NCBI GenBank assembly: GCA_044229975.1
Contig: JBGARZ010000024.1
Span: forward strand, 32,001 to 96,000
Direction: 5' to 3'
Source: Polyangiales bacterium
GTDB lineage: Bacteria; Myxococcota_A; Polyangia; Polyangiales; Ga0077539
DNA: 64,000 nt
A program made the translations under genes and the position numbers. A model generated the notes under the pieces. It made no database searches. It saw only the letters and a program-made list of their open reading frames with translations, and was not told the origin of the DNA. Positions 19,682 to 36,666 of this stretch are shown in pieces. The first letter of the stretch is position 1, and each line of letters begins with the position of its first letter.

Positions 19682-21067
19682 ATGTTCAGCATTGGCGAGG
19701 GGTCCTTCACCAGCGACTGGGTCGCCATCTTCGTCGCCTGCGCGCTGCTCCTGGCGCCGGTGCTCGCCGGCCTGCTGGTCGCGGCGCTCCTGCGCGCTGT
19801 GCTCACCATCCGCCGTCGCGCGCTCTGGACGGTGCCGCTCGTCGTCGTGCCCGTCGCGCTCTCGCTCGCCGCGATTCCGCGCACCGACCAGCTCAGCTTC
19901 TGGGACCTCCTCATCACCGGTCTCGGCTTCGCCGCGGGCGCGGTGCTCGCCATGGGACAGCCCGACGGCGCGGTGCTCCGCGGCGCCCTCCGCACGAGCG
20001 GTCGCATCACCGTGGGGCTGCTCATCGCCGAGGTCATCGCGCGCGTGCTGCTGCCCTCCCTCGGGGACTTTCCCTCGCCGCGCACCGCGCGCCTGGTGGT
20101 GCCCATCACCAACCGCGATCCGCCGTGCAACGTGCTCTATCCGCCGAGCGGCATGATCCACGAGGTCTTGCGCCGCGGCGAGCCGGGGCGCCCCAGGGTG
20201 CTGCACTTCGGCGACTCGCTCGTGGCGGGCATCGGCATCCCCTCGTCGGAGAACTTCGTCTCCGCGCTCGGCAACGCGCAGCCCGGCGTCCAGCACGTGA
20301 ACCTCGGCGCCGTGGGCGCGGGCCTCGACGTGTACCTCCTCGCGATGCGCCTCTGGGGCCCGGCCGCGCAGCCGCGCCTCAACGTCGTCTACATCTTCGC
20401 GGGCAACGACATGTTCGACCTCAACGCGCGCTACCTCTGCTGCGCACACGGCGGTCTGCTCGTCGACCAGGGCGGCCGCCTCACGCCGCGCTGCCCCACC
20501 GCGCAGTGGAACATTCCCCTGAAGGCCCACCTCGCGAGCAGCCCACCGCCCTTCGTGCTGCGCGCGCTCGCGCGGCCCTCGCGCGTCGCGGGTCACCTCC
20601 TCCGCTTCGTCATCCGCGTGCAGCAGGACGCCATGCGCCACGGCTTCAGAAACCTCCCGAGCCCCGGCGACCCGGCCTCGCAGACGCCCCGCTGGAACCT
20701 CCTCGACCAGCGCATCCGCGCCATCGCCGCGACCTCCCGCGAGCAAAACGCCCGGCTGTTGATGGTGGTGATCCCGAGCCGCACGACCATCGAGAAGACC
20801 CTCGGCTGGCCCGCCGTCGCCAACGACTACTGGGGCGACGGCCCGACCGGCGTGGCGGGTCATCGCCGCATCGTCGAGACGGCGCGCGCGGCGGGCGTCG
20901 ACGTGCTCGACGGCTGGGACACGCTGCGCGACGCCATGCAGCAGGACGGCGTCGAGCGCGTCTTCGCCAACGAGTACCCGGGCGACGTCCACCTCGGCCG
21001 CCTCGGCCACCAGCGCTTCGCCGTCTGGCTGCTGCCAGCACTCCAGGCCCGCGGCGTCAACCCCTAA
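19682..21067 (+). CDS. Membrane-bound SGNH/GDSL hydrolase (paralog of 11478-12857)
   Basis: N-terminal TMs; HFGDSL, NLG, GND, DVH. Confidence 0.8.
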   Translation: MFSIGEGSFTSDWVAIFVACALLLAPVLAGLLVAALLRAVLTIRRRALWTVPLVVVPVALSLAAIPRTDQLSFWDLLITGLGFAAGAVLAMGQPDGAVLRGALRTSGRITVGLLIAEVIARVLLPSLGDFPSPRTARLVVPITNRDPPCNVLYPPSGMIHEVLRRGEPGRPRVLHFGDSLVAGIGIPSSENFVSALGNAQPGVQHVNLGAVGAGLDVYLLAMRLWGPAAQPRLNVVYIFAGNDMFDLNARYLCCAHGGLLVDQGGRLTPRCPTAQWNIPLKAHLASSPPPFVLRALARPSRVAGHLLRFVIRVQQDAMRHGFRNLPSPGDPASQTPRWNLLDQRIRAIAATSREQNARLLMVVIPSRTTIEKTLGWPAVANDYWGDGPTGVAGHRRIVETARAAGVDVLDGWDTLRDAMQQDGVERVFANEYPGDVHLGRLGHQRFAVWLLPALQARGVNP

Positions 21068-21162: not shown

Positions 21163-21196
21163 ATAGCTCACGGAAAGGAATGTTTCCGTGAGCTAG
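21163..21196. other. Candidate lox-like recombination site
   Basis: ATAGCTCACGGAA-AGGAATGT-TTCCGTGAGCTAG; perfect inverted arms around an asymmetric core, about 42 bp before the recombinase ATG. Confidence 0.75.
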
Positions 21197-21238
21197 ACAG
21201 CGCCTCGGCACCTCGGGTACCGAGCACCTCTACCGCCC

Positions 21239-22366
21239 ATGGCCCGCCCACCCCGACCCGCCGCCCCGGTCGCCGTCCCGGTCACCTCCGCGATCGAGCT
21301 CGCGGTGGTCGACCCACCCTCTCCGTTGCCCGCCGCCCTCCAGCGACGGCTGGCCGACGCGAGGCGCTTTCTCCGCGAAGGCTCCCACGCCCCCGGCACC
21401 CGTCGGAAGTACACCGAGGACTTCGAGCAGTTCTCCGGCTGGTGCCAGCGCCACGGGCTCTCTCCCCTCCCCGCCGAACCCGGCCTGCTCGCCCTCTACA
21501 TCCACGCCCTCGCCGAACCCGACCCCGCCAACCCGCCGCGCGTCCGCCGCTCGCTCCATGGTCCGCGCGGCCCCGAGCCCGGTCAGTCGCCGATGCACCC
21601 CAGCTCCATCACCCGCGTCATCGCGGCCATCCGCTACGCCCACACCCAGCAGGGCGTCGCCTCGCCCACCTCCCACCCGCTGGTGCAGGAGGCCCTGCGC
21701 GCCGCTCGTCGCACGCTCGGGGTCGCGCCGCGTCGACGCGTCCAGGCCGCGGTGGTCGAGGTGCTCCGTCGGCTCGTGCTCGGGCTCGACGACTCGCTGC
21801 GCCACCGCCGCGATCGCGCGCTGCTCACGCTCGGCTTCGCGGGCGCATTTCGTCGCGCGGCTTTGGTCTCCCTCGACCTCGCCGACGTCGCGCGCGTGCC
21901 CGATGGCCTCGAAGTCACGCTCCGCCGCGACAAGACCGACCAGGCCGGCGCGGGTCGCACCCTCACCATCGCCCACGGCGCCAACCCCCTCACCTGCCCG
22001 GTGCGTTCGGTGCTCGCCTGGGTCGACGCGCTCGCCGCGCTCGGCCTCACCGAGGGCCCGCTCTTCCGCTTCATCGACCGCCACGGCAACGTCCGCCCGG
22101 CCCATCGCGGAAGCAGGAGCGACCGGCTCAGCCCGCAGTCCGTCGCCCTCGTCGTGCAGCGGCGGGCGCGCGCGGTGGGCCTCGACGCGACGCAGTTCGC
22201 GGGTCACTCGCTGCGGGCGGGCTTCGTCACCAGCGCGACGCGCGCCGGCAAGGCCATCCCGAAGATCATGGAGCAGACCGGCCACCGCAGCGCCAACACC
22301 GTCATGGCCTACGTGCGCGAGGCCGACCGCTGGCGCGACCCGGCCTCCGGCAACCTGGGCCTCTAG
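21239..22366 (+). CDS. Cre-like tyrosine site-specific recombinase
   Basis: N-terminal TRRKY..DF..F..WC; RDRALLTLGFAGAFRR (R), DKTDQ (K), GHSLRAG (HxxR), QTGH, VMAYVR (Y). Confidence 0.92.
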   Translation: MARPPRPAAPVAVPVTSAIELAVVDPPSPLPAALQRRLADARRFLREGSHAPGTRRKYTEDFEQFSGWCQRHGLSPLPAEPGLLALYIHALAEPDPANPPRVRRSLHGPRGPEPGQSPMHPSSITRVIAAIRYAHTQQGVASPTSHPLVQEALRAARRTLGVAPRRRVQAAVVEVLRRLVLGLDDSLRHRRDRALLTLGFAGAFRRAALVSLDLADVARVPDGLEVTLRRDKTDQAGAGRTLTIAHGANPLTCPVRSVLAWVDALAALGLTEGPLFRFIDRHGNVRPAHRGSRSDRLSPQSVALVVQRRARAVGLDATQFAGHSLRAGFVTSATRAGKAIPKIMEQTGHRSANTVMAYVREADRWRDPASGNLGL

Positions 22367-22422
22367 ACGCCTGGACCTCTCAACGCTCCAACGTTGAAGC
22401 GATCAGACGTCTGGACGCTCTA
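22364..22422. repeat. Degenerate octamer array A
   Basis: tagacgcc tggacctc tcaacgct ccaacgtt gaagcgat cagacgtc tggacgct. Confidence 0.65.
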
Positions 22423-23814
22423 GCGTTCGAAGCCGATCACCGGGCCGAGCAGCTCGGGAGTGAGGGGTCCTGTGCTGCCGAGGCCGGTGCAGTCGGGGGC
22501 AGACCGGACCTCCACGGCGAGGTGCGTCGGGTCGGACATCTGGAGGAGGATCACCTGGGGCTCCGGGGTGCTGCGCCCGCCCTGCCATCGGGTGAGTCCG
22601 TCGTAGCAGTAGATCGCCCCCGGCGTGATGCGGTCGAAGGGAACGTTGTGCGTCGACGAGGCCGAGTCAGGCGAATAGCGGTACACCCCGGGGGACAGCG
22701 CCGGCAGGCTCTCGCCCACCGAGAAGACCGGGTCACGGCGGCCGCGGTTGTCGTGGAAGAGACCGAGCCGCGTGCGCTCGCCCACCCAGGGCATGTCGCC
22801 GGTGCGAAACCACGCGCCGCGCCCGCTGCCAGGGACGTCCTGATTGATGACCCCGCAGTCCATCTGCTCGCTCGACAGCCGCGTGCGGAGCATGGTCCCG
22901 ACGGAGTTGGCGCCCTCCGTGACGAAGTAGTCCAGCGGGCACTGGATGTTGATGCGCTCGTAGCGGTACCGCCGCGGGTTGGCGAAGCGCTGCGTCGCCT
23001 GCCGGGTGTCGAAGGCCTCGATGGCGATCATCCCCTGCGAGGTGTGCGTGAACCCCACCGGATCGCCCGCGGTCACCGGGACGCTGAGGGAGTTCCAGAA
23101 GCACGTGCCGCCGTAGCAGGCGTCGGGCAGACCGAGGCGCTCGCGCAGCCCATCGGGCACGTCGTGCACCAGCCCGACGAAGAGCTCGACCTCGCGGCAC
23201 GGCGAGAACGAATAGTAGTAGTCGTACTTGGAGAGCCGCTCGTTCCAGGAGGTCATCAGTGCGGAGATGACCCCGTCGGACGGGGCATGCACGGGAGCCT
23301 GCGCCTGACTCGCGGGGAGCCCGCCCACCCGCAAGAACATGTGCCGGTTGGGGATCACATGCTCGGGCGGATCGAGGCTCCCCATCGGGTCGATCACCCG
23401 GATGAACTCCGGGTCGACGAGCGAGCGCGTGAAGAACCCCCGGCGCGAGCGATCGGTGCCGCAGGTGGGCAGGTCGGCGCGCTCGGCAAAGACTGCGCGG
23501 GTCGTGAGATCACGGTCCATGGTGAGCGTGCAGAAGAGCCCCTGTCCCTCGCACGCCCCCTCCCACCGCACGAAGCGGGCGCCCACGCCGTGGCGCACCG
23601 CCAGCACCACCGTCTCGCCGGCCGTGTAGTCCGCGCGGGCTTCGCTACAGCCCACCGCGCACAGGATGCCCGGGTGCTCGGTGAGCACGGTGCCCTCCCC
23701 ACCGCTGCGCTGCACCGTGAGCACGAGCGGCGCCGTCGACAGCACCGGCGGACGATCGACGTCGCCACAACCCGCGACCAGCAGCGCTGCCCAGCAAGCC
23801 CGCGTGACCCTCAT
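22420..23814 (-). CDS. Lipoprotein with InlB B-repeat-like domain and a degenerate M23-like region
   Basis: Lipobox LVAGC; GEGTV...F..WEGAC...CTLTM..D....AVF; VHAPSDG...VPVTAGDPVG. Confidence 0.65.
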   Translation of the reverse strand: MRVTRACWAALLVAGCGDVDRPPVLSTAPLVLTVQRSGGEGTVLTEHPGILCAVGCSEARADYTAGETVVLAVRHGVGARFVRWEGACEGQGLFCTLTMDRDLTTRAVFAERADLPTCGTDRSRRGFFTRSLVDPEFIRVIDPMGSLDPPEHVIPNRHMFLRVGGLPASQAQAPVHAPSDGVISALMTSWNERLSKYDYYYSFSPCREVELFVGLVHDVPDGLRERLGLPDACYGGTCFWNSLSVPVTAGDPVGFTHTSQGMIAIEAFDTRQATQRFANPRRYRYERINIQCPLDYFVTEGANSVGTMLRTRLSSEQMDCGVINQDVPGSGRGAWFRTGDMPWVGERTRLGLFHDNRGRRDPVFSVGESLPALSPGVYRYSPDSASSTHNVPFDRITPGAIYCYDGLTRWQGGRSTPEPQVILLQMSDPTHLAVEVRSAPDCTGLGSTGPLTPELLGPVIGFER

Positions 23815-23957
23815 GAGGCGCTTCCTCCACAGAGATGGCCCGCACCCATCACCGTGGCTTCCTGACACGGTCAGGATGCCGCGCTCATGTGTACGAACAC
23901 TGCGCACGCTATCGGACGGTGCGGCCCGCTGTCCACCCCACCGCGGCACATCACGCA

Positions 23958-24029
23958 GAGACGTCCAGACGTCTCGACGCCTCGACGTCCAGGCGCTTGA
24001 TCACCTGGACACCACGGCGCTAGAAGCGC
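23958..24029. repeat. Octamer array B
   Basis: gagacgtc cagacgtc tcgacgcc tcgacgtc caggcgct tgatcacc tggacacc acggcgct. Confidence 0.8.
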
Positions 24030-35776: not shown

Positions 35777-35827
35777 GGCGGTGGGCGATCATCGGCCACA
35801 ACACCGCCGGGACGAAGGCGGTCAATT

Positions 35828-35969
35828 CGGGCATCTAGACGTCCAGACCTCTGGACGCCTGAACTACCGGGCAACGAAAACACCTTCATCCATCGGTGTT
35901 TTCGAGTGGCGATGGCGCGCCGGGGTGATTGAACGTCTAGACGGCTTGGACCCTGGAGGACTAGACGTC
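35828..35969. repeat. Two octamer sub-arrays (D1, D2) around a 10-bp inverted repeat upstream of parA; candidate centromere/operator
   Basis: tagacgtc cagacctc tggacgcc tgaactac; CGAAAACACC-N10-GGTGTTTTCG at 35875-35904; tgaacgtc tagacggc ttggaccc tggaggac tagacgtc. Confidence 0.75.
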
Positions 35970-35976
35970 TCGCCCT

Positions 35977-36666
35977 GTGATCGTTGCACTGACTGGACAG
36001 AAGGGCGGCGTCGGCAAGAGCACCCTGGCGATCTGCATCGCCGCAGAGCTGCTCGAACGACGCCACAAGGTGCTGCTCGTCGACGCCGACCCGCAGGGGA
36101 CCATCCGCACCTGGGGCGAGGTCGCGGCCGAGGCCGGGCGCGCGATGCCGACCATCGTCTCCATGGGGTCGACGATGCACCGGCCCGAGCAGCTGCCGAC
36201 GGTTCGGCAGGGCTACGACGACGTCATCATCGACTGCCCGCCGCGCCACGGGGACATCCAGCGCTCGGCCCTCATGGCGGCCGACCTGGCGCTGTTGCCG
36301 TGCGGTCCGTCGTCGGCCGACGCGTGGGCGCTCGCCGCGAGCATCGACCTCGTCAACGAGGCCCGCTCGCTGCGAACCGACCTCGAAGCCCGCATCGTCA
36401 TCACCCGCAGGCAGGTGCGAACCGCCCTCGGACGCAGCGCCCGCGAGGAGCTGGAGAAGAGCGGCGTCGAGCTGCTCAAGGCCGAGCTCGGGTACCGCGT
36501 GGCCTACGCCGAGTCGCTCGGCGCGGGGCAGGGCGTGACCACGTACGCCCCGAAGGACGCGGCGGCGCTGGAGATCCGCGCGCTCGTGGGCGAGCTGCTC
36601 GCGTGGGAGAAGCAGCGGGTCGCGGTCGAAGAGACGCCGAAGGCGAAGGTCGCGCGCAAGCGTTAG
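35977..36666 (+). CDS. parA: Short ParA/ParF-type partition ATPase
   Basis: QKGGVGKST, VDADPQG, IIDCPP; no N-terminal HTH. Confidence 0.92.
   Translation: MIVALTGQKGGVGKSTLAICIAAELLERRHKVLLVDADPQGTIRTWGEVAAEAGRAMPTIVSMGSTMHRPEQLPTVRQGYDDVIIDCPPRHGDIQRSALMAADLALLPCGPSSADAWALAASIDLVNEARSLRTDLEARIVITRRQVRTALGRSAREELEKSGVELLKAELGYRVAYAESLGAGQGVTTYAPKDAAALEIRALVGELLAWEKQRVAVEETPKAKVARKR

Follow-up and report, generated by a model that had tools for sequence, protein, structure and literature searches.

Recombinase and flanking features

The window, that is, the whole stretch of 64,000 nucleotides analysed here, is carried by a 150-kb contig (C30) of the source genome (G000; 10.0 Mb, 39 contigs). 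The following features were delimited:

19682–21067, + strand: SGNH/GDSL gene, located to the left of the palindromic site in only 4 of the 11 loci with a called neighbour
21164–21195, + strand: palindromic site of 32 bp (13-6-13) that the recombinase likely binds and uses for crossover
21194–21223, + strand: possible promoter, with a GGGT(A) block (21215–21219) and, overlapping the right arm at its end, a TTGACA-like hexamer (21194–21199)
21239–22366, + strand: tyrosine recombinase of 375 aa from the Cre superfamily (MrpA/IntA/TnpS-like plasmid group); Pfam PF00589, 39 bits, over the cut-off
22364–22433, + strand: degenerate 8-bp GACGTCYR array beginning at the recombinase stop codon, the right-hand boundary of the module (profile score 34)
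22420–23949, − strand: variable cargo gene between two arrays, without a Pfam match
23960–24025, + strand: second 8-bp repeat array, which belongs to an inverted pair
35812–35975 (approximate limits): two 8-bp arrays directly upstream of parA, likely the centromere/operator of the partition system
35977–36666, + strand: ParA-family ATPase of the plasmid-like replicon; G002, G004 and G007 carry close orthologues on their recombinase contigs

Among solved structures, the best match to the recombinase was Cre (E 4e-8), and NCBIfam gave sub-threshold Xer matches only. Residues R205, K232, H323, R326, H349 and Y358 aligned with R173, K201, H289, R292, W315 and Y324 of Cre, and the R-K-HxxR-H-Y catalytic set described in an earlier note on this DNA is intact by this alignment. 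The protein therefore combines the R-K-H-R-H/W-Y residues and the phage-integrase domain that define the tyrosine recombinase superfamily and, judging from uncorrected pN/pS values of 0.14–0.42 against 12 relatives, it is under purifying selection. The RRAAL motif pointed out in the same note was also recovered, and Ala208 was found to occupy the position of Cre E176 (Glu/Asp-I), such that the acidic residue located three residues past Arg-I, the norm in the superfamily, is absent here. All 26 members of the clade have alanine at this position, and the 95 more distant matches have RSE (85), other Glu forms (5) or RSA (2), with 3 sequences unparsed. Table 1 of PMC2943603 gives Glu or Asp at this position in >95% of tyrosine recombinases and Cre E176A is described there as modestly active, with Holliday junctions accumulating in many E176 mutants. 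Ala208 may weaken the enzyme as a tool, and its fixation constitutes a natural test of why the residue is conserved.

The tight clade to which the protein belongs consists of 25 database clusters with 68–93% identity, and the large family around it accounted for 4,594 matches among 8,000 scored candidates. Relatives were present in 2,016 plasmid records versus 6 phage records, and none was identified in IMG/VR. Identity to characterised enzymes was 32% for SCP2.07c, 31% for Rhizobium etli IntA, 27% for the pWW0 integrase, 22% for Cre and 21% for Dre. We take SCP2.07c to be MrpA and the palindrome upstream of it to be mrpS, the pWW0 integrase, which lies beside a divergent gene, to be TnpS, and the p0908 gene included in our trees to be VCre. 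In two quick trees, with SH-aLRT as the only support measure, Cre, Dre, the p0908 gene and two plasmid genes formed a clade (support 99–100) excluding the window protein; the second tree was built without two long-branch rows and most of the near-duplicates, and neither tree resolved the deeper branches. Given this position and an identity of 22% to Cre against 31–32% to IntA and MrpA, a close Cre-type membership, as worded in the earlier note, is not supported; a further correction to that note is that the family is common on plasmids. A sister recombinase family (36–43% identity) is found in the same genus and family (L011, L013–L016 and L143); several of its members have CCGATA-type palindromes much like the IntA attA, and one is on a terminally redundant contig.

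The palindromic site and its conservation

The sequence of the palindrome upstream of the recombinase was confirmed, with perfect 13-bp arms around 6 bp. It can also be read in the loxP-style 13-8-13 register (21163–21196, with 12 of the 13 arm pairs matching), and it ends 42 nt (34-mer) or 43 nt (32-mer) before the recombinase ATG (21239). Both registers had been proposed and both are readable, but the conserved unit is taken to be the 32-bp 13-6-13 form because the first base of the 34-mer varies among relatives. Within the window, this is the sole perfect inverted repeat with arms of at least 11 bp. When the window was simulated 60 times with an order-3 Markov model, a comparable repeat arose in 4 cases, and the 10-Mb genome contains 52 perfect inverted repeats with arms of at least 12 bp, so the mere existence of the palindrome is compatible with chance and it is its conservation that settles the matter. 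A separate family of hairpins, with a TCAGCTTTTCA core and arms of 14–31 bp, was observed in the same genome (C2:223066, C3:86524, C4:263665, C24:169143 and C39:91300 and 362173), and is possibly REP- or attC-like.

The single copy reported for the window was also the only one in the entire assembly, in which there is one close copy of the recombinase gene and no half-site within 2 mismatches in any of the 39 contigs. The searched genomes have one site per recombinase gene: no further site or half-site was detected in G000, G002, G004, G006 or G007 (assemblies 81–94% complete). A candidate second site at C32:840454, with 4 arm mismatches, lies within a coding gene and was treated as a chance match, and a variant site in G008 is likewise within a coding gene, without a recombinase nearby. 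These results speak against an integrase that uses one att site at each end of an element, there being no second site or half-site in these assemblies and the two weak candidates examined lying in coding genes. An AAA-ATPase-like gene followed by a small gene is present at G000:C32:839685–841852, and the pair presumably resembles a two-gene defence module.

Homologues of the recombinase were present in 27 of 101 related genomes, the close ones being those of G002 (two), G004, G006 and G007, and a metagenome scan yielded 19 loci, 10 of them close; the close-locus count excludes three loci lacking DNA upstream and one that is a 99% duplicate. The site was kept in all 11 other non-redundant close loci with upstream DNA, with 0–6 differences per 32 bp, a comparison suggested in the earlier note, and the non-coding DNA around it diverges among the same loci. 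Over the 12 loci (window included), 22 of the 32 columns are invariant and the asymmetric 6-bp spacer is identical in 10, that is, in the window and 9 of the 11 others. Variants of the right arm track the recombinase subclades and variants of the left arm do not. A GTDB-wide scan with a relaxed pattern returned 50 matches. The five within 6 differences of the site, labelled Deltaproteobacteria or Myxococcaceae, all adjoin a recombinase and add no independent loci; the other 45, with at least 8 differences, had no recombinase within the fetched flanks, and neither did any of the five viral matches to the pattern.

In the wider family, an upstream palindrome scored better than 30 of 30 shuffles in 12 of the 34 scored distant loci, rox and attA included, and these 12 palindromes share the same register, with a mostly GATAA- or TATAA-like inner arm; a simple scan revealed no significant upstream palindrome in the remaining 22. 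The window site aligns in register with rox, loxP, the IntA attA and the SCP2 (MrpA) site. In its arm, AT of the family arms is replaced by GA, with the outer TA(A/G)CT, CG and inner AA retained. With the site co-conserved with the gene in every close locus with upstream DNA, the claim that this is the native target of the enzyme is strengthened, and we consider it very probable, on this comparative evidence, that the palindrome is the binding and crossover target of the recombinase. A methyltransferase gene with a lipoprotein-like N-terminus recurs in several positions (L043:9137–9895, L035:3029–3805, L031:5897–6670 and L046:14621–15394), being located directly left of the site in G007 and between the site and the recombinase in L043.

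The hairpin folds (z −3.44) and lies 96 nt past the stop codon of the SGNH gene, as would a transcription terminator of that gene. However, there is no T-run and no terminator was called, 4 of 11 loci have a divergent gene upstream of the site, and the arms show no compensatory changes, with 13 of 130 cells breaking the pairing and the loop being conserved. In the absence of a T-run, a consistent co-directional gene and covariation, an intrinsic terminator was rejected, and this reading is hardly credible. A GGGT block 19 nt past the site is present in 12 of 12 loci, followed by A in 11, and a consensus promoter scan returned no sites within 21194–21223. The overlap of the TTGACA-like hexamer with the right arm, together with the invariance of the GGGT block, suggests that the recombinase represses its own gene, and the site is probably also the operator of this gene. 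The palindrome could even be an operator only, with an attenuated Ala208 enzyme acting mainly as its own repressor: the site overlaps a possible −35 element, alanine is fixed at Glu/Asp-I throughout the clade (26 of 26 members), and in L043 a gene of 1.1 kb separates the site from the recombinase. Nevertheless, six phosphate-contacting residues are kept in the aligned clade members, the asymmetric core, needed by a crossover site and not by an operator, is conserved, and Cre E176A is still active (PMC2943603). We therefore consider an operator-only role to be decidedly unlikely.

The plasmid-like replicon and possible exchange at the site

Besides parA and a small partner-like gene, C30 carries a second DnaB-like gene with an HTH gene after it. 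This DnaB-like gene shares 34% identity with a further DnaB copy, located on C39. G002 and G004 have close orthologues of it on their recombinase contigs, with two sets of ParA and DnaB-like genes in G002; the HTH gene was matched in 15 of the 31 family genomes. In L043, the gene after parA gave a weak, sub-threshold ribbon-helix-helix match. At each end of C30, the open frame belongs to the same giant Cys-rich repeat gene and is on the same strand, a layout similar to that of G004:C13 and G002:C25, suggesting that the contig is a circle broken at the repeat; no terminal overlap was found at its ends. Contig G002:C10, from the same genus, which carries a 42%-identical sister recombinase with ParA and a DnaB-like gene, has its start repeated at its end. 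The DnaB-like/HTH module is also present in G008, in which no recombinase match was found, so the recombinase module may be non-essential or the G008 assembly incomplete. A tRNA-Tyr called on C30 lies within an ORF and was disregarded, and four metagenome sequencing runs yielded short pieces of the locus only, with no informative joint. Overall, C30 looks like a plasmid of ~150 kb with probably joining ends.

There appears to be a family of such plasmids, of 110–150 kb (G000:C30, G004:C13 and contigs C25, C92 and C10 of G002), with DnaB-like and HTH genes, ParA, a giant Cys-rich repeat protein and numerous genes of the radical-SAM, glycosyltransferase, carbamoyltransferase and FG-GAP types. 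The HTH gene has two more copies at G000:C29:39880–46397, and C29 (152 kb) may be another plasmid or an integrated element. Only two myxobacteria were known to carry plasmids according to PMC11705834; the plasmid collection that we examined also contains pYRE. The enzyme/site pair marks what seems to be one family of large plasmids, with radical-SAM and glycosyltransferase genes in abundance, in a group for which few plasmids are reported. The replication, partition and resolution parts of these plasmids could supply vectors for Myxococcota, and this side result may outweigh the pair itself in importance.

The 8-bp array follows the recombinase stop codon in all close homologues except that of G006. 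With a GACGTCYR profile trained on relatives only, all 10 arrays of the genome scoring at least 22 were on C30; of these, two precede parA and another two lie at the partner-like gene. Their positions in the window are 22364–22433, 23960–24025, ~33203, ~35812, ~35930 and ~62477, and those given on G000:C30 are ~96713, ~101063, ~101197 and ~122253. The dispersed arrays, some of which lie at cargo boundaries, are likely centromere/operator sites and possibly also hot spots for insertions and deletions; the cargo gene between the first two arrays is absent in L040 and replaced in G004, L046 and L044. A perfect 10-10-10 inverted repeat (35875–35904) is located between the two arrays upstream of parA.

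We suggest, with a probability of roughly 0.7, that the main role of the system is the multimer resolution of a plasmid-like replicon of ~150 kb in an uncultured myxobacterium-like host, the palindrome serving as the cognate crossover target. The basis of this reading is a conserved site of rox/loxP geometry, an intact recombinase, one site per gene and plasmid-type modules on the contig, and the replicon context favours the dimer-resolution role put forward in the earlier note. By analogy with the Cre-family mechanism, each 13-bp arm would be bound by one recombinase monomer, the two sites of a dimeric plasmid would pair, Y358 would cleave on either edge of the asymmetric 6-bp core, and two strand exchanges via a Holliday junction would generate two plasmid monomers. 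Binding may at the same time cover the promoter element and repress the recombinase gene. If this reaction took place between related plasmids in one cell, it would join them and exchange the DNA on the left side of the site; the breakpoints observed at its left edge may have arisen in this way.

In seven pairs of loci with 94–97% identical genes, homology extends 0–2 bp leftward of the site and 65–2,401 bp rightward; as these pairs were drawn from six loci, they represent about four independent events. G004 and L046 are 96.6% identical over 9.4 kb to the right of the site, with one break at an array. Their left flanks differ, with the SGNH gene in G004 and, in L046, a phage-like block (L046:1–9885) abutting the left edge of the site, in which 13 ORFs were called, none with Pfam or PHROG matches; one protein of the block resembles clusters that are 82–95% viral, and for one L046 protein no relative was found in IMG/VR or in the 31 family genomes. 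Crossover within the site between plasmids differing in their left flanks predicts such a pattern, which suggests natural exchange at the site. However, G004 and L046 share the left arm despite their different left flanks, the 47–96 bp left of the site cannot be aligned between the window and L040 in spite of their identical gene order, an observation that a crossover there leaves unexplained, the right end of the module is also variable, and no second site was found. Neutral turnover within limits set by selection may also account for the breakpoints.

Remnants of the 3' end of the recombinase gene with its array, lacking a site, were also observed (L032:17665–17905, L034:461–577 and L043:7505–7609), that of L032 being followed by a Phd/PIN toxin-antitoxin pair. 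Such remnants would be expected if fused plasmids lose one site. They lie near fragments of the backbone HTH gene in G002 and were counted as support for plasmid fusion, and the enzyme might accordingly be mainly an IntA-like agent of cointegration or exchange between related plasmids, or of the uptake of site-bearing elements. The sharp left-edge breakpoints of the tight pairs and the diversity of left neighbours (about 9 in 12 loci, including the phage-like block of L046) are consistent with this role, as is the fusion of plasmids by IntA at a site upstream of its own gene, reported in PMC4928290. However, none of G000, G002, G004, G006 and G007 has a site or half-site beyond one per gene, and the two G002 copies differ in their core, which would hinder their mutual exchange. 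We consider plasmid fusion rather unlikely as the principal function.

Multimer resolution remains our preferred reading, and a broader, tentative scenario may be added to it. An undescribed family of 110–150-kb plasmids of Myxococcota might use a recombinase naturally lacking Glu/Asp-I as a shuffling hub swapping whole plasmid arms between co-resident relatives, with the site hijacked by a phage-like element for its landing and the dispersed, centromere-like 8-bp arrays marking the gain and loss of cargo. This is a speculative picture, which we judge doubtful as a whole.

Comparison with known systems

MrpA is reportedly involved in plasmid multimer resolution. The MrpA/mrpS system of the Streptomyces plasmid SCP2 (SCP2.07c, AL645771; 32% identity over 341 columns) has a 13-6-13 palindrome at a distance of 18 nt before the gene, and this is the site closest to that of the window (8/13 positions in each arm and, reversed, 5/6 in the core); parA is nearby both on SCP2 and on the plasmid-like C30. 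It differs in the inner arm sequence, in having Glu at Glu/Asp-I and Trp in place of His349, and in being a small actinobacterial plasmid. In E. coli, MrpA multimerises plasmids carrying mrpS, according to PMC4685060.

IntA/attA of R. etli p42a (31% identity) has a similar insertion in the N-terminal domain and an upstream palindrome, with arms matching at 7 of 13 positions; a matching palindrome was located by us upstream of the p42a integrase gene. It differs in its 7-bp core and in having a partner site, attD, on another plasmid, no counterpart of which was found here; IntA is described in PMC4928290 as fusing plasmids at a 23-bp palindromic site.

TnpS/TnpT of Tn4651 (pWW0) belongs to the same broad family, and a TnpS-like resolvase of a chromosomal transposon or integrated element, resolving cointegrates and perhaps dependent on a helper, was considered. 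The 27% identity to the pWW0 integrase, itself beside a divergent gene, and the variable neighbours on both sides of the module are compatible with such a role. However, unlike TnpS/TnpT, the window module has no divergent helper gene or Tn3-type transposase beside it: no divergent neighbour is conserved in 11 loci, no Tn3-type transposase was detected among 60 scanned proteins, and plasmid modules are on the same contigs as the recombinase. Furthermore, the TnpS site sits between tnpS and tnpT, which are divergently oriented, as described in PMC7157771. A transposon resolvase is thus very improbable.

Cre/loxP (P1) and Dre/rox (D6), rox being annotated as 32 bp upstream of dre, share with the window pair the catalytic positions, the 13-6-13 geometry and the outer TA(A/G)CT. 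The window enzyme differs in its identity (21–22%), its separate position in the trees, and His and Ala in place of W315 and E176. In contrast to P1 and D6, no phage genes were identified among those scanned on the window replicon. A 13-8-13 or 13-6-13 palindrome within 1 kb of the gene, the mark of a Cre-type site, was nevertheless found, as was the co-conserved upstream palindrome with an asymmetric core that characterises a single-enzyme resolvase and its site.

No description of the pair or of the plasmid family was found in the literature covered, most subscription journals and supplementary tables being outside its scope, and PMC8138268, in its accessible part, leaves Cre-like enzymes without classification. 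The 1 kb around Cre-like genes was searched in PMC10250229, with ~500 pairs listed and 8 of 17 active. The supplement text of that paper (48,886 characters, with the table of ~500 pairs perhaps outside it) contains neither the arm motif nor any of four myxobacterial taxon words. According to that paper, active sites share a T at position 7 of the arm, with G(T)-A-T(G)-A adjoining the spacer; the window site has C at position 7 and GGAA as its last four arm bases, in the 34-bp register as read here, which may differ from that of PMC10250229. The value of the pair as a tool is weakened by the alanine at Glu/Asp-I, the absence of these two features of active sites and the proportion of mined pairs found to be active. 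The pair could nonetheless be an orthogonal tool or a starting point for the evolution of new specificities, and would be cheap to test. It is precisely defined, its Cre-superfamily branch lies outside the narrow Cre/Dre clade, and its arms match those of loxP and rox at only 6 of 13 positions. The kind of system is already known and actively mined, and the enzyme/site pair itself is an addition to it.
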